Origin: Nanobdellota archaeon
GTDB lineage: Archaea > Nanobdellota > Nanobdellia > Pacearchaeales > JAHJTO01
NCBI GenBank assembly: GCA_042572295.1
Contig: JBHPFA010000002.1
Coordinates: 64,180-128,179 of the forward strand
DNA length: 64,000 bases
Reading direction: 5' to 3'
Shown here: positions 4,634 to 22,385 of the stretch, one piece after another
Position numbering within the stretch: the stretch's first letter is position 1
Layout: every line of letters starts with the position of its first letter
Notes under the pieces: generated by a model
Database searches by the model: none
Told to the model about the DNA's origin: nothing
The model's input: the letters and a program-made list of their open reading frames with translations, nothing else
Position numbers and translations under genes: made by a program

Positions 4634-4689
4634 TTTTCTCTTTTTTATTTTACCGTCGACAAACAGCTTTTTAGCAAAATGATGAGGGC

Positions 4690-4727
4690 TGTTTAAGCTG
4701 TTTAAACAGTTGTTTAAGGGTGTTTAA
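4690..4727. promoter_or_regulatory. Array of four phased TGTTTAA boxes (putative operator) in a divergent intergenic region
   Basis: TGTTTAA occurs at 4690, 4699, 4711 and 4721 (spacing 9/12/10 bp), including the palindromic CTGTTTAAACAG. The array lies between the divergent starts at 4633 (-) and 4803 (+). Confidence 0.55.
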
Positions 4728-4802
4728 AGTTAATAAATCTTTGCTTATAATAAGAATATCTAACGAAGGATTTAAATACTAGAAATGGCCTATTTATAGA
4801 CG

Positions 4803-5426
4803 ATGGTTTGGTGGTTATTTTCGTCAAAAGAGGAGCACAATGACCTTAAGACAGAGGTTAAACAGGCTTTCTCAGCGGTTAAAGGTGATCTAAAGAAGGC
4901 TTCTGATTGGATCACTCATTTAAACACCCGTGACAAACACCATGAACATGGTGTTGAAGAGATACATGAGCGTTTATCCTCTATGGAAGAGGAGATTTCT
5001 GAAATGAAAGGCTTTATTGCTTTCTTTTCTACTAAGATGTCCAAACAGCTGTTTAAACAGCGTCAAACAGGTGTTCATAAACAGACAGCTGTTGAAGGTG
5101 TCCAAACACCTGTTCAAACAGCTGTCCAAAGTTCATTTTTACAAAATTTGAGTGTTATGGAAAGAGCAATTGTATGGACTTTACTGAATACTGACCTGAA
5201 ATTGAGTTGTGATGATATATCTTCAATTTTGAACAAAGAGAGGAGTACAGTTAGGGGACAGATCAATTCAATAAAACAGAAGAGTGAGGGCCTTATAGAT
5301 GAGGTCTTAGAAAAGAGTGGAAAAAAGCGATTTTTTATACCTGAAGAGGTAAGGGAAACAGTATTCTCGAAGATGAAAGCTGATAAGGGCTCAAGGAAAA
5401 AACGAAAAAGAGAGAGTGAGTATTAA
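4803..5426 (+). CDS. Coiled-coil / winged-helix DNA-binding protein (paralog of 5991..6779)
   Basis: N-terminal heptad-like region, a Q/K/T/V-rich linker, a C-terminal wHTH-like segment (MERAIVWTLLNTDLKLSCDDISSILNKERSTVRGQINSIKQK) and a shared tail motif (FFIPEEVR versus LKIPPELR in the paralog). TATA-like tttaaata lies at 4771-4778. Confidence 0.55.
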   Translation: MVWWLFSSKEEHNDLKTEVKQAFSAVKGDLKKASDWITHLNTRDKHHEHGVEEIHERLSSMEEEISEMKGFIAFFSTKMSKQLFKQRQTGVHKQTAVEGVQTPVQTAVQSSFLQNLSVMERAIVWTLLNTDLKLSCDDISSILNKERSTVRGQINSIKQKSEGLIDEVLEKSGKKRFFIPEEVRETVFSKMKADKGSRKKRKRESEY

Positions 5427-5430
5427 GCAG

Positions 5431-5483
5431 TTAAACGAACTTCTATTTCTAATTAAACGAACTAAGATGCATGTTAAACGAAC
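5431..5483. repeat. Three direct iterons TTAAACGAACT
   Basis: Copies start at 5431, 5453 and 5474 (spacing 22 and 21 bp), immediately after the stop of 4803..5426. Confidence 0.85.
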
Positions 5484-5489
5484 TAAATG

Positions 5490-5900
5490 ACGACAAAATG
5501 AAAAAAGTGAGAGTTAGAAAGTATGAATAAAGGGTAGAAAATGGTAAAAATGAGCGAAAAGAGGCTTAAGTGTGGCAAAAAGTGAGAGATCTGGGTAGAT
5601 ATAAGGCAGGATAGTAGGAAGTGGGGCCTAAAGGGGAGAAAAATAGGCCATTTTAGAGCAAAAAGTGAGGAATAAGTACGCTTAATCGATAAGTGTGGTA
5701 TGAAAATAGTGAAAAATGAGGTATTTTGATAAAAATAGAGGTTTATGTAGGAAAGAAAGTCCAGTTTTGGTAAGAAAGTGAGAGATAAGCTAGTTAATCG
5801 GTTAAACGAAAAACTGCAGTTTTTAAGGCTTAAACTACTTTGGAGGACAATTTGACTTATTTTGGGTGGTAAGTTGAAAGGAATGTGAGATTTTCTCACA
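5490..5900. repeat. Purine-rich (C-poor on + strand) non-coding region with dispersed AAAGTGAGAG repeats
   Basis: AAAGTGAG(A/G)G occurs at 5504, 5578, 5662 and 5775. TTAAGTGTGG/ATAAGTGTGG occurs at about 5567 and 5689. An inverted GTGAG-ATTTT-CTCAC lies at 5885-5899. The 138-aa minus ORF here is low-complexity and judged spurious. Confidence 0.7.
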
Positions 5901-5990
5901 CTTTGATCCTAAAGTTAACAAAAAATCGCTGATTTTTCATAAAAATATTCCTTAAATTTTTGTAGAATTAAGCCTTAATTCATCAAATTC

Positions 5991-6779
5991 TTAATCTCTA
6001 GTAAATTTATTTAGATCTGTATCTTTACTCAGTCCTCTGATACGCATAAGATTGTCTAACGTAGCCAGATTCCGTAGTTCTGGAGGTATTTTTAGTACAG
6101 TAGTCTTATTATTTAGCCTATTTTTGAGTATTGGTATGCCTTTTTGAGTAATCCTTCTTATATAGTCCCTAATGCTGGAAGAGGTTAAACTAGTCCTTAC
6201 AGCGAGATCTTGATAAGTTACTTGATTTTGTGTTTTATCGACGGTAAAAAGCACTGAAAATATGAAGAATTCTTGCTTCGTTAATGACTCAAATTTCTGC
6301 TTTAAGTCTGATTTCAGTGTGTCCATGAGTTTGGTTAAGTTGCTTATTTGAGTATTTTGTTCGCTTTTATCTGTCGAAGTGTCGAAGAATGTGTCTATGT
6401 GTCGAAGTTTTTCAGGGATGTGTCGAAGATGTGTCGAAGAATGTGTCGAAGTTTCGGGTTGAGGGTTTTGATGAATAGTCGGTTTACCGTCGAGTGGAAA
6501 TAAGGGGGTGTTGTCTGTCTGTGTGTCTATGTGTCGAAGTGTCTGAACCCCTTCATTTCCAGTGGAACTTTCTGGTAAAAGGTTCGTTTTAATTGAGTTA
6601 TTCGGTATTTGGGGAAGTTCTTCTGGATTCATAGACTTTTTTACTAGAATATCATAACGAAGTTCGTTTAATTCTTCTTTTAGTCTGTTAATTTCTTCTT
6701 TTATCCCTTTAATTTCAGAAAAAAATGAAATTTCTTCCTCTTTTTCATTATTTCTAGGATCCATGAATGAGTAGAACAC
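5991..6779 (-). CDS. Coiled-coil / winged-helix DNA-binding protein (paralog of 4803..5426)
   Basis: N-terminal coiled coil (EEINRLKEELNELRYD), a repeat-bearing linker and a C-terminal wHTH-like segment (VTYQDLAVRTSLTSSSIRDYIRRITQKGIPIL). Confidence 0.55.
   Translation of the reverse strand: MFYSFMDPRNNEKEEEISFFSEIKGIKEEINRLKEELNELRYDILVKKSMNPEELPQIPNNSIKTNLLPESSTGNEGVQTLRHIDTQTDNTPLFPLDGKPTIHQNPQPETSTHSSTHLRHIPEKLRHIDTFFDTSTDKSEQNTQISNLTKLMDTLKSDLKQKFESLTKQEFFIFSVLFTVDKTQNQVTYQDLAVRTSLTSSSIRDYIRRITQKGIPILKNRLNNKTTVLKIPPELRNLATLDNLMRIRGLSKDTDLNKFTRD
6371..6541. repeat. Seven copies of (T)GTGTCGAAG embedded in the 5991..6779 coding region
   Basis: GTCGAAG starts at 6373, 6381, 6401, 6422, 6433, 6445 and 6533. 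On the coding strand CTTCGACAC is read in all three frames (TSTH, SSTH, LRHI, FFDT). Confidence 0.85.
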
Positions 6780-6813: not shown

Positions 6814-7122
6814 TTATATATAAGTGTGGTCTTTCTCGTCGTATTTTAGGTTTTGATCATGTACTCTTTGGTATGCTTGGAAAGTATTATTTGTTAATCT
6901 CCAACGTATTCTTCTCAAATAAATTACTCCGCTTGCATTTTTTTTCACGCCAGCGATAAGATTTCCTTTCTCCATTTCAATAAGAAGTCTTTTTAGAAAC
7001 TCTTCATCTCTTGCCATATGCATAGCAATCTCCGACGTGAAAAGGGCTTTCGGAGAGTTTCTAAATAGAACAGACAGTACCTCTTCTTTAATACGATCAA
7101 TTTTATCTTGAGATATTCGCAT
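6814..7122 (-). CDS. Small winged-helix protein (102 aa)
   Basis: SPKALFTSEIAMHMARDEEFLKRLLIEMEKGNLIAGVKK...IRWRLT has an HTH-plus-wing-like pattern. Confidence 0.5.
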   Translation of the reverse strand: MRISQDKIDRIKEEVLSVLFRNSPKALFTSEIAMHMARDEEFLKRLLIEMEKGNLIAGVKKNASGVIYLRRIRWRLTNNTFQAYQRVHDQNLKYDEKDHTYI

Positions 7123-7208
7123 TTTGTTTCAAAGAAACTCTACTATAAAAGTTATTCGGTATAACTACTAACAAAAACATTTAAAACGAACGTTTGGATG
7201 CTTTTTTG

Positions 7209-12964: not shown

Positions 12965-12989
12965 AGATATAGGGGGAACTGCGAAATGA

Positions 12990-13005
12990 AGCTGTTTAAA
13001 CAGCT
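12990..13005. promoter_or_regulatory. 16-bp perfect palindrome AGCTGTTTAAACAGCT
   Basis: Read directly. The same core occurs at 4698-4709 and 5047-5061. It lies about 110 nt upstream of the lhr ATG. Confidence 0.5.
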
Positions 13006-13113
13006 GTCTTCTAAAATTTTACTCATAGGACTTGTTTGAACAAGTGTGTTAGTATACTATATACGGACCGAAAAATCTTTATAGTCCAAACTCTTACGGG
13101 GGAAGCCTATAAA

Positions 13114-15720
13114 ATGTTTAAACAAGCTAAGTTGAGAGATAAGAAAGAATTGATGGATAGTCTTGATCCCCTTGTTGAAGAATGGTTCTTTTCACGTTTC
13201 AAAGAGTTTTCATTACCCCAGAAATATGGAGTGATGCCTATTTTTGAAAGGAAAAATATTTTGATCTCTGCTCCAACTGGGGGAACCAAGACACTTACTG
13301 CTTTTTTGAGTATCTTAAATTATATTGTAAGCATTGCAAAGAGGGGTGAACTTGAGAATAAAGTTTATGCAACTTATATTTCTCCATTAAAGGCATTGAA
13401 TAATGATATTCAAGTTAACTTAGTTGGGCCTTTGAAAGAAATAAATGAGATTGCAAAGAAAAAAGGAATTGAGATGGATGAGATAAGGGTTTTGGTGAGA
13501 ACAGGAGATACTCCAACATCTGAGAGAGTGAAGATGTTGAAGAAAGCACCACATATTTTAATCACTACTCCAGAAACTTTGGCAATCGTTTTGAATTCTA
13601 CAAAGTTCCATGAAAAATTAAAGGCTTCTGAATTTTTGATTTTGGATGAGATTCATGCACTTGCTGGAAACAAACGTGGGGTTCACTTGAATTTGAGTAT
13701 TGAAAGATTACATGATATGTCAGATATTAAACCTATTCGAATTGGTTTGTCTGCTACTATTGCTCCTTTGGAAGAGATTGCTAAGTATCTAGTAGGGTAT
13801 GAAGGAAATAAGGAAAGGGATTGTTTGATTGCAGATGTCCAGTATACTAAGAAATCTAACTTTGAGGTTTTGTGTCCTGTAAGTAATTTGATTGACACTA
13901 CTGCTGCTGATCAACAATATCATATGTATAAATTATTAGACGAACTTATTCAGGAACATAAGACTACTATTATATTTGCAAATACAAGGGCTGCGACTGA
14001 AAGAGTTGTGCATAACTTGAAAGAAAGGTTTCCTCAAAGATATAATGAAAATATTGGTGCGCACCATTCTTCCTTAAGTAGGGAGATGCGTTTTATGGTT
14101 GAAAGTAGACTTAGAGAAGGGAAGATGAAAGTTGTTGCTACTTCCAGCTCCTTAGAATTGGGAATAGATGTGGGGGCAATAGATTTGGTAATCCTCTTGG
14201 GTTCACCTAAAAGTGTTTCACGTGCTTTGCAAAGGGCTGGTAGGGCAGGACATAAATTAAACGAAGTTAGTAAAGCAAAGTTTGTTGTTTTGGATAGAGA
14301 TGATTTGGTTGAATGTGCTGTGATGATGAAAGAATCTATTGAAAAGCATATTGATCGTGTTCAGATTCCTAGAAATGCATTAGATGTGCTTGCGCAACAG
14401 ATTTATGGTATGGCTATTTCTGGACCAATGCCCATTAAGGATATGTATGCTTTGATTAAGAAGAGTTATTGTTATCATGAATTGAGTATTGATGATTTTT
14501 ATTCTGTAATCTCTTATCTTGCTGGAGAATATGAGTTGAATGCTAGTAATGTTTATGCAAAGATATGGTATGACAGAGAAAGTGGGATGGTTGGAAAGAG
14601 AGGTAAGTTGGCAAGAGTTATTTACATGACAAATATTGGAACTATTCCTGATGAAAGTTTTGTTAATGTAGTTGCGGCGACCCCCTCCGAAAGAAAGGGG
14701 CAGAAAATTGGAATGATTGATGAGGGTTTCTTAGAAAGAATGAAAAAAGGAGATATTTTTGTTTTAGGTGGAGCAAAATACCAATTTCTTTATAGTAAAG
14801 GGATGAATGCTTATGTTAATGCATCTGTTATGAAGAGTCCCACAATCCCTTCTTGGTTTTCAGAGATGTTGCCATTGAGTTTTGATCTTGCAAATGCTAT
14901 TCAAAGGTTTAGAAAGTTAGTTAATCAAAAATTTGAGAGTAAGAAATGTAAGAACGAGATTATTGATTTTATTTCAGAGTATCTTTATGTGAATAAGACC
15001 ACTGCTTCTGCAATTTATGGTTATTTTGATGAACAACATAGATATAGTAAGATACCTCATTCTGAAAGATTGTTAATTGAAGATTTCAAAGACATGTCTA
15101 AGCATTATGTTGTGTTCCATTCTGTTTATGGGAGGAGAGTCAATGATGCTTTATCTAGGGCGCTGGCTTATGTTGTTGGAAGATTTGGGGGCAGAGATAT
15201 AGAAGTCGGAATTAATGATAATGGTTTCTTCTTAGCAAGCAATGATAAGATGAATATTGATAAAGCTTTGAAGAGTTTGACCTCAAAAAATCTTCAAGAG
15301 ATCTTGGATGAGGCAATTGCAAAGACTGAAGTGTTCAAAAGAAGGTTTAGGCATTGTGCAACAAGGGCTTTAATGATATTAAGAAATTATAAGGGCCGTT
15401 CAAAGAGTGTTGGGAGGCAACAATTAGGAAGTCATTTCTTACTTGCAGCAGTTCAGAAAGCAACTACTGAGTTTCCTGTTTTGAGGGAGGCTAAAAGAGA
15501 GATTATGGAAGACTTAATGGATATTAAGAATACTAAATTGGTGTTGGATGCTTTGAAAAATGGAAAAATTAAGACCGTTTATTTGAATAAAGAGTTTCCT
15601 TCTCCTTTTTCATTTGCTTTAATTACACAAGGGCATGCAGACTTGTTGAAAATTGAAGATAAGGTGGCATTTCTAAAAAGAATGCATGAAGGTGTTCTGG
15701 AAAGGATTGGTAAGAAGTAG
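13114..15720 (+). CDS. lhr: Lhr-type ATP-dependent DEAD/DEAH-box helicase (Lhr-core with DEAD_assoc C-terminal domain)
   Basis: Motif I APTGGTKT, motif II LILDEIHAL, SAT-like SATIAP and motif VI QRAGRAGH, plus a long C-terminal Lhr-specific region. Start moved from the track's TTG (13036) to the ATG at 13114. Confidence 0.9.
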   Translation: MFKQAKLRDKKELMDSLDPLVEEWFFSRFKEFSLPQKYGVMPIFERKNILISAPTGGTKTLTAFLSILNYIVSIAKRGELENKVYATYISPLKALNNDIQVNLVGPLKEINEIAKKKGIEMDEIRVLVRTGDTPTSERVKMLKKAPHILITTPETLAIVLNSTKFHEKLKASEFLILDEIHALAGNKRGVHLNLSIERLHDMSDIKPIRIGLSATIAPLEEIAKYLVGYEGNKERDCLIADVQYTKKSNFEVLCPVSNLIDTTAADQQYHMYKLLDELIQEHKTTIIFANTRAATERVVHNLKERFPQRYNENIGAHHSSLSREMRFMVESRLREGKMKVVATSSSLELGIDVGAIDLVILLGSPKSVSRALQRAGRAGHKLNEVSKAKFVVLDRDDLVECAVMMKESIEKHIDRVQIPRNALDVLAQQIYGMAISGPMPIKDMYALIKKSYCYHELSIDDFYSVISYLAGEYELNASNVYAKIWYDRESGMVGKRGKLARVIYMTNIGTIPDESFVNVVAATPSERKGQKIGMIDEGFLERMKKGDIFVLGGAKYQFLYSKGMNAYVNASVMKSPTIPSWFSEMLPLSFDLANAIQRFRKLVNQKFESKKCKNEIIDFISEYLYVNKTTASAIYGYFDEQHRYSKIPHSERLLIEDFKDMSKHYVVFHSVYGRRVNDALSRALAYVVGRFGGRDIEVGINDNGFFLASNDKMNIDKALKSLTSKNLQEILDEAIAKTEVFKRRFRHCATRALMILRNYKGRSKSVGRQQLGSHFLLAAVQKATTEFPVLREAKREIMEDLMDIKNTKLVLDALKNGKIKTVYLNKEFPSPFSFALITQGHADLLKIEDKVAFLKRMHEGVLERIGKK

Positions 15721-19906: not shown

Positions 19907-20332
19907 TTATTTTTTAGGAGTATTTTCAGCACCAATTTGCGGTAATCTCAAATGAAGGGGCAATCCCATATCTTCTTCAAGTTCAAATGCTTTTACATTA
20001 CATTTATTGAAGATAGTATTATAAACAGCTAATTTTGTTTCTTGATCAGAGATTGTTTTATTCTTTTTCCAACCTTCTAAAATTTCTTTTGCTTTTTCTG
20101 ATGGTAAGGCAACTAGAATAGTTCCAGCAAATTTTATACTTGCTAAATCAGGAGTATATTCAATATCATAAGAGAAATCAAACTTCAAAGGCATTTGTCC
20201 TTCAGGAAGACTTATTTTTCTTTCTTCAACATTATTCATACTAATCTGAGATTTTACATCAACTTGCTGGTTACCAGAAGTAGCTTTTCTATCTACATGA
20301 ATTTTCGAAAATGTAAATCCTATAACTGTCAT
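19907..20332 (-). CDS. Hypothetical protein (141 aa)
   Basis: Well-formed ORF, probably co-transcribed with the PRC-barrel gene upstream. No family recognised. Confidence 0.45.
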   Translation of the reverse strand: MTVIGFTFSKIHVDRKATSGNQQVDVKSQISMNNVEERKISLPEGQMPLKFDFSYDIEYTPDLASIKFAGTILVALPSEKAKEILEGWKKNKTISDQETKLAVYNTIFNKCNVKAFELEEDMGLPLHLRLPQIGAENTPKK

Positions 20333-20349
20333 TTTATTTATTTAAGAAA

Positions 20350-20607
20350 TTATGCTAATTCTTCTTCATTCACTACAACAAAATCGCCTATTGCCAACAA
20401 TGAATGATAAGGAATTAATAATTCTCCTTCCTTTGTTTGTTCTAAAGTTAAAGAATTGGTATAAGCAGTTGGAGATGCAATCAACAAGTGAATCAATTCA
20501 CCAGTCTTTGTATCAAATGCTATATCTTTAACTACACCTAATCTGCGACCTTCTTTAGTCACAACATTTTTGCCTAAAACTTCTCTCAAAGGTTTTTTCT
20601 CTTTCAT
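20350..20607 (-). CDS. PRC-barrel domain protein (85 aa)
   Basis: GKNVVTKEGRRLGVVKDIAFDTKTGELIHLLI...LLIPYHSLLAIGDFVVV is the typical small archaeal PRC-barrel pattern. Confidence 0.75.
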   Translation of the reverse strand: MKEKKPLREVLGKNVVTKEGRRLGVVKDIAFDTKTGELIHLLIASPTAYTNSLTLEQTKEGELLIPYHSLLAIGDFVVVNEEELA

Positions 20608-20820
20608 TAAATAATAAATAGGTAAATTGTTTATAAATGTTTCTATGATTTTAGGGTTATTTCAGTCACTAATTTTTAAAGGGATTATTTGTAAAATGAG
20701 GGAGAAAATGGTAAAGATTGGTTAAAGAAAGAGTATATTTGAAGATCTTTATTAGTTATATTATTAAAAGAGTAATAGTCGTAGTATAATTGGATTAAAA
20801 GAACTAATTAAAAATAAGGG

Positions 20821-20849
20821 GTGTGTCCCCCTTGTTTCTCATGGAAAGG
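20821..20849 (-). repeat. ORB-like box 1
   Basis: The reverse complement reads ...TTTCCATGAGAAACAAGGGGGACACAC: a TCCA..GAAAC core plus a G-string. Confidence 0.55.
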
Positions 20850-20973
20850 TTTAAAAAGAAAACTCAAAATCTCTTCTTTATTCTTTATTTATATTTATAA
20901 ATATTTATATTATATATTATATATATTATATTATTATATACCTCATTTTTACGACGAGAGACACTGTTTTAAC

Positions 20974-20997
20974 CTCCACTGGAAACCAGGGTGTCTC
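20974..20997 (+). repeat. ORB-like box 2
   Basis: CTCCACTGGAAACCAGGGTGTCTC, bracketed by the inverted repeat GAGAGACAC / GTGTCTCT. Confidence 0.6.
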
Positions 20998-21055
20998 TAC
21001 CTTAAGATTTTTCCATTTATTTTTAGTAATTCTTACAAGCATTTATAAGCAAACT

Positions 21056-21076
21056 CTCCATTGGAAGCATAGGTTG
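21056..21076 (+). repeat. ORB-like box 3
   Basis: CTCCATTGGAAGCATAGGTTG, in the same orientation as box 2. Confidence 0.5.
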
Positions 21077-21176
21077 TTAAAGTAAGTATTTGAACAAGGA
21101 TATATTTATAAAAAGTATTGGGTAATTTTCTTTGTTGAATAATTACTTCAACAAAACTCTTAAAGGAGGTTGATAA

Positions 21177-22385
21177 ATGGGTGTTGAACTTGATGACATA
21201 TTTGATTCGTTTACAAAGAATAGTATCTTTCAAGATAAACATGTTCTTCAAGCAAACTATAATCCTGAAACAATCCCCCATAGGGATGATCAAATAAAAC
21301 AAATTGCTGCAATTCTTGCTCCAACATTAAGATTAGACAAACCTTCAAACCTTTTTATCTATGGAAAGACTGGAACTGGAAAAACTTTGTCTGTTCAATA
21401 TGTTTGTAATCAATTAGAGAAAAGGGCTAAACAAAATAAAGCTAATTTGAAGTTTTTTTATATTAATTGCAAACTGAAAAAGGTAGCAGATACTGAATAT
21501 AGGATTCTTGCAGAGCTATTAAGACAATTAGGCAAGCAAGTTCCTTCTACTGGGCTACCTACCGATCAAATTTATCATAGATTTATTCAAACAATTGATG
21601 ATTCAAAAAAATTGATTGTTATTGTTTTAGATGAAGTTGATCAAGCAGTTAAAAAGATTGAAGATAACTTTCTTTATAACTTAACAAGATTAAATTCAGA
21701 ATTAAAAAACTCTCAATTAACAATTATAGGTATAAGTAATGATTTAGTTTTCTTAGACAATGTAGATCCCCGTGTAAAGAGTTCTCTTTCTGAAGAAGAA
21801 ATTGTTTTTCCACCATACAATGCATTACAAATACAAGATATTTTAAGAGAAAGGGCGAAGCTTGCATTTAAAGAAAAAGCTATTGGCGATGGAGTTATAG
21901 AGAAATGTTCTGCATATGCTGCTAGGGAACATGGAGATGCTAGGAGGGCCTTAGATTTGTTAAGGATTGCTGGAGAACTTACAGAAAGGGAAGGGAAAAA
22001 GGAAGTAAATATAAATTATATTGATTCTGCTAAACAAAAAATAGAGAAAGATAAGATTATAGATATTATTTCAACACAACCTAAACAATTTCAATTAGTT
22101 TTGTTAGCAATTATGGCTCTTACTGATTCTAGGAAGAATGAGAAGATATTTACTGGGGACACTTTTAATTCATATCGTGATTTTTGTGAACAAACTGGAA
22201 CAGAGCCTTTAACACAAAGGCGTGTTGGAGATATTCTGTCTGAGTTTGATATGTTGGGTATAATAAATGCTCAAGTTGTAAGTAAAGGGAGACATGGAAG
22301 GACAAAAGAGATCAAACTTTCAATCCCTCCTCATTTAATAAATAAATCAAAGATAATAGTTAGGGATTCATTAGGTTTAAAGTAA
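21177..22385 (+). CDS. cdc6: Orc1/Cdc6 replication initiator
   Basis: PHRDDQIKQIA, Walker A YGKTGTGKT, Walker B VIVLDEVD, sensor motifs and a C-terminal winged helix. SD aggaggt lies 6 nt upstream. Confidence 0.95.
   Translation: MGVELDDIFDSFTKNSIFQDKHVLQANYNPETIPHRDDQIKQIAAILAPTLRLDKPSNLFIYGKTGTGKTLSVQYVCNQLEKRAKQNKANLKFFYINCKLKKVADTEYRILAELLRQLGKQVPSTGLPTDQIYHRFIQTIDDSKKLIVIVLDEVDQAVKKIEDNFLYNLTRLNSELKNSQLTIIGISNDLVFLDNVDPRVKSSLSEEEIVFPPYNALQIQDILRERAKLAFKEKAIGDGVIEKCSAYAAREHGDARRALDLLRIAGELTEREGKKEVNINYIDSAKQKIEKDKIIDIISTQPKQFQLVLLAIMALTDSRKNEKIFTGDTFNSYRDFCEQTGTEPLTQRRVGDILSEFDMLGIINAQVVSKGRHGRTKEIKLSIPPHLINKSKIIVRDSLGLK

Follow-up and report, generated by a model that had tools for sequence, protein, structure and literature searches.

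A replication-origin box and further DNA elements within the linker codons of two origin-proximal winged-helix genes of Pacearchaeales

What are short repeated DNA sequences doing inside the coding regions of two facing genes that fit no described protein family? The question arises in a 64,000-nucleotide (nt) stretch of the genome of a Nanobdellota archaeon of the order Pacearchaeales (assembly GCA_042572295.1, contig JBHPFA010000002.1, positions 64,180 to 128,179), called the window below and used for all coordinates unless stated otherwise. A sequence-only reading of the window had drawn attention to two convergent genes, here gene 1 and gene 2, each with a coiled coil, a winged helix-turn-helix and, between them, a linker with a DNA repeat family of its own. 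The two repeat families are confirmed here, and we show a point absent from that reading: the linker repeats and motifs are DNA-level elements under selection, not protein repeats. The element in the gene 2 linker has the sequence of the origin recognition box (ORB) found at the replication origin beside cdc6. The module consists of three genes.

4803..5426, plus strand: gene 1, 207 amino acids (aa); N-terminal coiled coil, disordered linker, Lrs14/Sta1-like winged helix and basic C-terminal helix (open reading frame, homologues, AlphaFold2 model, sub-threshold Sta1 and Lrs14 matches).
5991..6779, minus strand: gene 2, 257-262 aa; N-terminal coiled coil, long disordered linker, winged helix with an invariant SSIRDY, and tail LKIPPELRNLATL (open reading frame, homologues, AlphaFold2).
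6814..7122, minus strand: gene 3, 102 aa, putative small winged-helix protein, first in a gene 3-gene 2 pair (open reading frame).

The only invariant residues in the gene 2 linker are S-x-G-N-x-G-V. We chose linker sites by this protein motif alone and then compared the underlying DNA across species-level loci, the unit of all locus counts below (x/81, x/79, x/71). Raw counts are inflated by kinship among genomes. In 79/81 loci the DNA was nearly constant and read TTCCA-NN-GGAAAT-NNN-GGGGTTCC(A/G)ACAGACAGA, with a box core of TTCCA-NN-GGAAAT-NNN-GGGGTT and a family-wide dyad of TTCC-NNN-GGAA. The two variable residues of the protein motif coincide exactly with the N positions of the box. Serine was encoded by TCC in 84/85 cases, the two glycines by GGA (76/76) and GGG (82/85) and valine by GTT (79/82). 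In this genome TCC makes up 5% of Ser codons, GGG 12% of Gly codons and GAC 19% of Asp codons. Motifs of the same genes that are equally invariant as protein (SSIRDY, KG and NNK) used two to six synonymous codons each. These within-gene controls have the same phylogeny as the linker motif and therefore meet the inflation of counts by kinship.

6546..6568, minus strand: primary ORB element GTTCCACTGGAAATGAAGGGGTT, near-invariant DNA, translated S-T-G-N-E-G-V.
6488..6510, plus strand: second ORB copy CGTCGAGTGGAAATAAGGGGGTG, inverted and on the strand opposite to the primary element, read as T-P-L-F-P-L-D-G; third-best matrix match in the genome (see below).

A second copy of the box was present in 21/79 loci, with recurrent spacings of 43 nt (direct) or 60-62 nt (inverted). 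The inverted arrangement occurred in seven loci, this window included, while five loci had two direct boxes 43 nt apart that are translated differently, as STGNRGV and PQEIGGLK. Because rare codons are fixed in the linker while the control motifs vary, and because copies occur in another frame or on the other strand, the linker is a DNA element. By its sequence, the linker motif STGNEGV is a translated DNA signal of the replication-initiator type. That these are instead ordinary paralogous transcription factors with low-complexity linkers, whose DNA likeness is a by-product of amino-acid repeats and codon bias, seems to us scarcely credible. The linkers of both proteins are indeed disordered and rich in T, Q, D and H, but such a by-product would account neither for the fixed rare codons beside variable control motifs, nor for one DNA sequence read in two or three frames and on both strands, nor for the cross-detection of origin boxes by the element.

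This cross-detection came from the region of the window around the initiator gene.

21177-22385: cdc6, the only copy in the genome, followed by the genes for the small and large subunits of PolD.
20610..21176: canonical origin directly upstream of cdc6, with inverted ORBs at 20825-20847 (minus strand) and 20973-20995 (plus strand) around a 98% AT element at ~20879-20940.

A 23-nt matrix was trained only on the gene 2 element from other genomes. Its four top matches in the 856-kb assembly, to which all genome-wide counts and matrix ranks refer, were the box pair of gene 2 and the pair at the cdc6 origin, and 6546-6568 ranked first. When a 21-nt version was applied to the cdc6-upstream regions of 15 genomes, boxes were found beside a segment of 93-100% AT in 15/15, mostly as an inverted pair flanking that segment (one region had a single match), against a background of 0.014 matches/kb. 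The sequence at 6546-6568 has the features of an ORB, namely a TTCC-N3-GGAA dyad with a G-string at a fixed distance, and the same genome carries the motif as an inverted pair around an AT-rich element next to cdc6. The window sequence ACCCCTTCATTTCCAGTGGAAC is also close to P. furiosus ORB1 (CCCCCCAGAGTTTCATTTCCACTGGAAC). These matches show the gene 2 element to be, in sequence, the ORB of this lineage, identical in kind to the box at the origin. In P. furiosus, ORB1-3 bind Cdc6/Orc1, ORB3 being bound in vitro, and the coding sequence of Pyrococcus dp1 contains an internal ORB cluster that is occupied by Cdc6 in vivo (PMC1904270).

The box is the only element common to the module and the origin: AAGTGAG, GTTCAAACA, ACAGACAG and TTCGACAC were absent from all 15 cdc6-origin regions searched. 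The origin boxes likewise lack the 3' flank of the gene 2 box, GGGGTTCCAACAGACAGA. Position 137649 of contig C2 of genome G000, which is outside the window, has a lone TCCAGTGGAAAT dyad that no G-string accompanies.

The sharing of the box bears directly on which protein reads it. The winged-helix proteins of the module might do so, instead of Orc1/Cdc6 or in competition with it; the gene 2 product would then be an ORB-binding antagonist or modulator that autoregulates through the intragenic copy and possibly occupies the origin boxes as well. We regard this as rather unlikely, though it deserves the most serious consideration of the alternatives. The SSIRDY recognition helix is invariant, as is the DNA element; the family-wide TTCC-NNN-GGAA dyad is typical of a dimer site; and the box stays with gene 2 across several orders despite changed gene order. 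However, the fold is generic and MarR/Lrs14-like, with no specific likeness to the Orc1 winged helix, the box is the one that flanks the unwinding element and resembles the Cdc6-binding sites of Pyrococcus, and an autoregulatory operator would more usually lie in a promoter.

The position of the module points in the same direction as the box. In all genomes of the order that have gene 2 and cdc6 on one contig (14/14), gene 2 was 2.6-16 kb from the only cdc6 match and divergent from it. Box-bearing homologues from other orders lay 4.5-32 kb from cdc6 in 10/10 cases, and two distant homologues without the box lay >300 kb away. The module's orientation is thus fixed, and its distance from cdc6 and the origin is a few kilobases. 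In locus L040 the order is dp1, cdc6, origin, PRC-barrel gene, 142-aa gene, gene 3, gene 2 and convergent gene 1, and in some genomes the module is only ~1.5 kb from the classical origin. In the window, ~13 kb of other genes separate gene 3 from the PRC/141-aa pair at the origin. Replication control had been one option of the sequence-only reading, and the link to replication holds, since the gene 2 linker has an ORB sequence and the module is always near cdc6 and the origin.

The pair that adjoins the origin of the window (19907-20607) encodes an 85-aa PRC-barrel protein and a 141-aa protein without a family match. Corresponding PRC and 141/142-aa genes stand between the origin and gene 3 in L040 and beside the origin in L003, and the 142-aa gene directly precedes gene 3 in many relatives. 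GC skew along the 162-kb contig tracks gene orientation, with a shallow minimum ~13 kb away, and was uninformative.

Is the module itself an origin? The question gains interest from a further set of repeats in the gene 2 linker.

6371..6541: lineage-specific iterons (T)GTGTCGAAG (coding strand CTTCGACAC), with copies at 6379, 6399, 6420, 6431, 6443 and 6531; tandem with period 11 in the core.

All six copies of GTGTCGAAG in the 856-kb genome are within the gene 2 linker, where they are read in frames 1, 0, 0, 2, 2 and 0, that is, in all three frames. Most relatives have (ACAG)n after the box, read as TDRQ repeats, where the clade of the window has the CTTCGACAC iterons; in another order CTTCGACAC likewise lies 3' of the ORB. 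Iterons of period 11 (about one helical turn) within a gene and next to ORB boxes could belong to a second, independent origin with the gene 2 product as its dedicated initiator, as in phage lambda O and ori-lambda. Weak DnaD_N and HTH_36-type matches in the gene 2 family would suit such a role, as would a non-coding spacer between convergent genes that is unusually long for a compact genome. We nevertheless consider a second origin improbable. No AT-rich unwinding element was found between 4600 and 7200, where the maximum was 82% AT in 60 nt against 98% at the cdc6 origin; the boxes are not placed around an AT-rich core, nor is there such an element with outward-pointing boxes at its flanks; and the period-11 iterons are specific to one clade, most relatives having (ACAG)n. 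Because there is no unwinding element, the boxes face each other and the true origin can be ~1.5 kb off, the locus is probably not an independent origin.

The repeats could also slip. In a contingency (phase-variable) locus, changes in the (ACAG)n and 8/11-nt repeats would make the C-terminal winged helix of gene 2 alternate between on and off states; the unit lengths are not divisible by three, the repeats lie within coding sequence, and their copy number differs between species. This possibility appears very improbable, as 79/81 loci kept the linker and winged-helix motifs in a single open frame (the regular-expression motif being absent from the remaining two), no internal stops were found in 76 genomes of the order, only terminal stops being counted, and slippage would leave the frozen, non-repetitive ORB box and its match to the origin boxes unexplained.

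The linker of gene 1 contains a different set of repeats, which recur in the promoter of the gene.

5034..5134: gene 1 linker repeats, period 12, TGTYCAAACAnCTG, read as S-K-Q-L and V-Q-T-x.
4688..4730: operator-like array of TGTTTAA(A/G) units upstream of gene 1, with the palindrome CTGTTTAAACAG at 4698.

The linker copies at 5034 and 5095 are 61 nt apart and therefore fall in different frames; the DNA unit also occurs in another order, where its reading is SKQLSKQ. Codon use was again close to fixed at the positions tallied: Gln was CAA in 46/46, Thr was ACA in 44-45/46 and the variable residue was NNT in 43/46, while the control motif TIRGQIN in the winged helix used mixed codons. These codons show the gene 1 linker to be, at the level of sequence, a second fixed DNA element of GTYCAAACAnnT repeats, which form phased palindromes like those of the gene 1 promoter. 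Together with the gene 2 elements, all DNA elements of the module show conservation at synonymous positions or are read in more than one frame.

The 12-nt palindrome CTGTTTAAACAG has four sites in the genome. Motifs of the CTGTTT/AAACAG type were found upstream of gene 1 in a subset of relatives (14/66 for the strict motif), and ATCGACG-type motifs precede the gene 1 TATA box in many relatives. In the window, an Lhr-type helicase gene (13036-15720) has three TGTTYRAACA palindromes around its start (12993, 13033 and 13115; region 12988-13124), one of which (~12992/12993) is a perfect CTGTTTAAACAG, identical to the element of the promoter and linker of gene 1. In other loci Lhr often stands next to gene 3 in divergent orientation; a regulon linking gene 1 and Lhr through CTGTTTAAACAG is not general, however, since the motif was upstream of Lhr in 0/34 other loci. 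A 16-nt inverted pair, TTTTACCGTCGACAAA and TTTATCGACGGTAAAA, with 94% complementarity, lies at 4648-4663 upstream of gene 1 and at 6234-6249 in the winged-helix coding part of gene 2.

How widespread is the module? At 90% clustering gene 1 had >1263 homologues and gene 2 had 114, all from Pacearchaeota/Nanoarchaeota-type metagenome bins and often sharing contigs. Scanning of genomes detected relatives of gene 2 in 403 species genomes. Within the order, 76/81 genomes had a single copy of gene 2, as did 42/44 of those of high quality, and distant relatives were found in 88/121 genomes of a phylum sample. The co-occurrence of the pair in related genomes, which the sequence-only reading had suggested looking for, was high: 71/81 loci kept the convergent gene 1/gene 2 pair, and gene 3 was upstream of gene 2 in 68/81 loci with a median gap of 52 nt. 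Searches of PHROGs and NCBIfam returned only generic HTH matches under threshold and no viral or plasmid signature. By this distribution the module is a core chromosomal locus and neither an island nor a plasmid remnant.

The arrangement varies in places. In several other orders (L100-L106) the gene 2 and gene 1 homologues are in tandem on one strand, yet gene 2 keeps its ORB box, and L101 has an extra box within the gene 2-gene 1 spacer. In loci L037, L049 and L073 one more ORB-like site, in inverted orientation, lies close to the promoter or 5' end of gene 1, at about +1440 to +1470 nt from the gene 2 box.

Between the convergent genes lies the spacer.

5427..5990: non-coding spacer, 564 base pairs (bp), purine-rich on the gene 1 strand.

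The single open reading frame in the spacer (5483-5899, minus strand) comes from the pyrimidine-rich strand and is of low complexity, and the length of the spacer among relatives ranges from 41 to 1148 bp (median 350 bp). For both reasons we take the spacer to be non-coding, as had been proposed from the window alone, and the coordinates given there for the two genes and the 564 bp across which they converge are correct. Rfam returned one tRNA in the whole window and no known RNA in the spacer, and the 41-1148 bp range argues against a structured RNA gene. The spacer of the window contains boxes in one orientation: three TTAAACGAAC (5431, 5453 and 5474) and AAAAGTGAGRR at 5503, 5578, 5661 and 5775. 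The repeat consensus is AAAAAGTGAGAGTTA, and the one-directional AAAAGTGAGAGTT repeats have a spacing of 30-100 nt; among 71 loci, CTCACTT occurred on the gene 2 strand of the spacer with a median of two copies and never in the other orientation.

Such oriented arrays near an origin could suggest a centromere-like segregation site, in which the coiled-coil/winged-helix proteins coat the spacer repeats and intragenic sites, like ParB on parS in its own gene in Bacillus subtilis. The proximity to the origin and the 30-100-nt spacing of the repeats would fit, and the predicted coiled coils could bridge sites. We find this reading about as improbable as that of a second origin, or slightly more so: no ParA, SegA or TubZ-type NTPase was near any locus inspected, and the spacer repeats are missing in short-spacer lineages. 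Among the neighbours in the window, L001 and L003 there was no ParA, ParM or TubZ gene; these neighbours were DUF5654, TrmB, HD, NUDIX, UDG, AAA_28, Lhr, PRC and cdc6. The suggestion of a partition or incompatibility-like module in the sequence-only reading is not supported, as no ParA/TubZ-type NTPase was seen next to what is a core chromosomal gene of 76/81 genomes.

Smaller elements recur elsewhere in the module. Boxes of the TTAAACGAAC / GTTCGTTTAA type are found at 5431-5483 (three in tandem after the gene 1 stop), at 6581-6594 and 6660-6671 in the 5' part of gene 2, and at 7185-7194 upstream of gene 3; 4/7 of the exact copies in the genome are within the locus. These boxes are candidate promoter elements or protein-binding sites.

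7150..7165: GTTATTCGGTATAAC element beside the gene 3 TATA box, with a second copy at 6599 inside gene 2.

Both genome copies of TATTCGGTAT are in this locus, and ACCGAATAAC or its complement was near the gene 3 promoter in roughly 20/67 loci.

What proteins does the module encode? For the gene 2 product, AlphaFold2 predicts a helix at residues 3-45, disorder at 46-132, a helix at 133-159 and a winged helix at 163-225, with a predicted local distance difference test score (pLDDT) >90 over helix and winged helix. The gene 1 product is predicted to have a helix at 7-79, disorder at 80-110 and a winged helix at 118-178, followed by a C-terminal helix. The database copy of gene 2 starts at ATG 6764, which gives 257 aa and is the more likely start; GTG 6779 is the alternative. 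Sequence searches of the PDB matched coiled coils, and the winged helix has a MarR-like fold (Foldseek E about 1e-3, template-modelling (TM) score 0.27-0.45), a generic likeness at the level of fold only. Neither gene had a MarR match in Pfam, which leaves both outside that family as defined there.

Plain BLASTP detected no similarity between the gene 1 and gene 2 products. Profile-profile comparison of the families, one of the checks proposed with the sequence-only reading, aligned the winged helix and the tail (KKRFFIPEEVRE / NKTTVLKIPPELRN) with 96.7% probability and E 3.6e-10, and the N-terminal part of the gene 2 profile matched gene 1 in several genomes (E 1e-4 to 2.5e-7). Because both parts align, the profiles make genes 1 and 2 paralogues along their whole length, and the shared order of coiled coil, linker, winged helix and tail that had been noticed in the window is supported by the AlphaFold2 models as well. 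The recognition helices are invariant within each family, SSIRDY for gene 2 and TIRGQIN for gene 1, which disfavours the idea that the pair are specificity-swapped regulators. Pfam and NCBIfam gave only sub-threshold family matches for genes 1 and 2 (HTH_11, Sta1/Lrs14), and no described family fits; the earlier impression that the arrangement is not a described system is thereby upheld. Gene 3, also noticed earlier, has a conserved place upstream of gene 2; its winged helix is putative and draws on a single weak Pfam match (E 0.14); no relation to genes 1 and 2 was detectable.

How might these parts act together? The reading we favour, at slightly better than even confidence, is that the locus is an origin-proximal, vertically inherited control module, made up of two paralogous coiled-coil/winged-helix proteins, a small third protein and cis sites inside the genes, and serving as an accessory initiator-binding and regulator hub of Pacearchaeales-type DPANN archaea. 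Orc1/Cdc6 would bind the intragenic box or boxes, by analogy with the ORB cluster of Pyrococcus dp1. The three proteins would bind the neighbouring repeats, with invariant recognition helices to fit invariant DNA motifs, and the coiled coils could serve oligomerisation or the bridging of sites. The resulting complex would be an accessory initiator-binding site. There are two options for its effect: (i) expression of the regulator encoded by gene 2 could be tied to initiator occupancy, through a roadblock or operator inside the gene, or (ii) the initiator could be held or titrated beside the origin.

Several points weigh against this control-module reading. We infer every protein-DNA pairing in it, that of Orc1/Cdc6 as well as those of the three module proteins, from sequence. 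The conserved DNA runs past the classical box (GGGGTTCC-AACAGACAGA), and a different or additional factor may be its reader. The paired boxes of the window point inward, opposite to the arrangement at the origin, and thus do not reproduce the canonical geometry for helicase loading. Proximity to the origin could partly reflect inherited synteny rather than function. Finally, the spacer repeats are dispensable, since 13/71 convergent loci do not have them, nearly all with a spacer of <250 bp.

We also offer a more specific proposal tentatively, as possible though doubtful. In it, the linker codons of these two origin-proximal genes, in Pacearchaeales and neighbouring orders, would be primarily cis-acting DNA, with gene 2 carrying the best-conserved Orc1/Cdc6 site of the genome. 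Together with the proteins' own sites, this would make a dedicated initiation-control locus, either an archaeal counterpart of datA/DARS titration and reactivation or a licensing checkpoint at which expression of the regulators would be coupled to the occupancy of initiator sites. If true, it would be an unrecognised layer of replication control in single-Orc1 archaea and a clear example from nature of a protein motif that owes its existence solely to being a translated DNA signal. Should the site modulate initiator availability or couple transcription to initiator binding, it would represent a new kind of archaeal replication-control element.

The linkers are in any case a rare and statistically clean example of dual coding. 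A protein motif that looks invariant across hundreds of DPANN genomes is a frozen DNA signal, which is a warning for motif-based annotation. The locus also provides a first concrete handle on origin organisation in Pacearchaeota, which are uncultured and have one Orc1/Cdc6 and no described origin anatomy: a defined origin, where boxes and an unwinding element lie next to cdc6, together with a conserved accessory site for which three DNA-binding proteins are candidate partners.

How does the module compare with known systems? Our literature search found no paper on this protein family or these elements, and a 2026 preprint on complete Nanobdellota genomes, which were rotated to Orc1/Cdc6, does not mention ORBs. 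The UBP/ucm system of Sulfolobus origins is unrelated, having a beta-hairpin protein and a different motif. Among protein families, the gene 1 winged helix resembles Lrs14/Sta1, with matches to the Sta1 model (E 3.4e-5), to Lrs14 models and to the Lrs14-like structure 6cmv (E 0.01). However, the scores are below the family cut-offs (23.9 versus 80 bits for Sta1, 14.3 versus 90 for Lrs14), so that gene 1 falls outside these families as defined, and the proteins described here have three further parts, namely a long coiled coil at the N terminus, a linker that is disordered and a conserved tail.

Cis sites near an origin, sometimes inside the gene of the protein that binds them, are known from parS within spo0J of Bacillus subtilis and from datA, which titrates the initiator in E. 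coli. Both are functional analogies for a presumed accessory initiator-binding site. The proteins are unrelated and the module has no ParA or ParB, so a role in titration or segregation would be suggested by analogy only. In the O gene of phage lambda, the iterons of ori-lambda lie in the linker-coding region; ori-lambda is a complete origin with an AT-rich region, and O is a proven initiator. As in lambda, cis repeats here occupy the part of a DNA-binding protein gene that encodes a flexible linker, and site and protein are inherited together. Unlike lambda, the locus is chromosomal, has linker iterons without an AT-rich core, and its classical initiator Orc1/Cdc6 is encoded elsewhere.

The boxes themselves share the TTCC-N3-GGAA dyad and G-string of the canonical ORBs of Sulfolobus oriC1 and Pyrococcus oriC. 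They differ in that the intragenic box has no adjoining unwinding element and occurs alone or as a pair, with a spacing of 43 nt in direct pairs and of about 60 nt in inverted pairs, whose G-strings face inward. The nearest precedent is the intragenic cluster of ORBs and mini-ORBs in dp1, the gene for the small subunit of PolD, in Pyrococcus and Thermococcus, where ORBs likewise lie inside a coding gene, within a few kilobases of cdc6 and the origin, and show conservation between relatives (PMC1904270). Binding is known only for Pyrococcus. The host gene in our module, unlike dp1, encodes a DNA-binding protein, in whose disordered linker the box is translated. Conservation also extends further here, over at least one order and several others in the class, with copies in different frames and on different strands and with elements other than ORBs.

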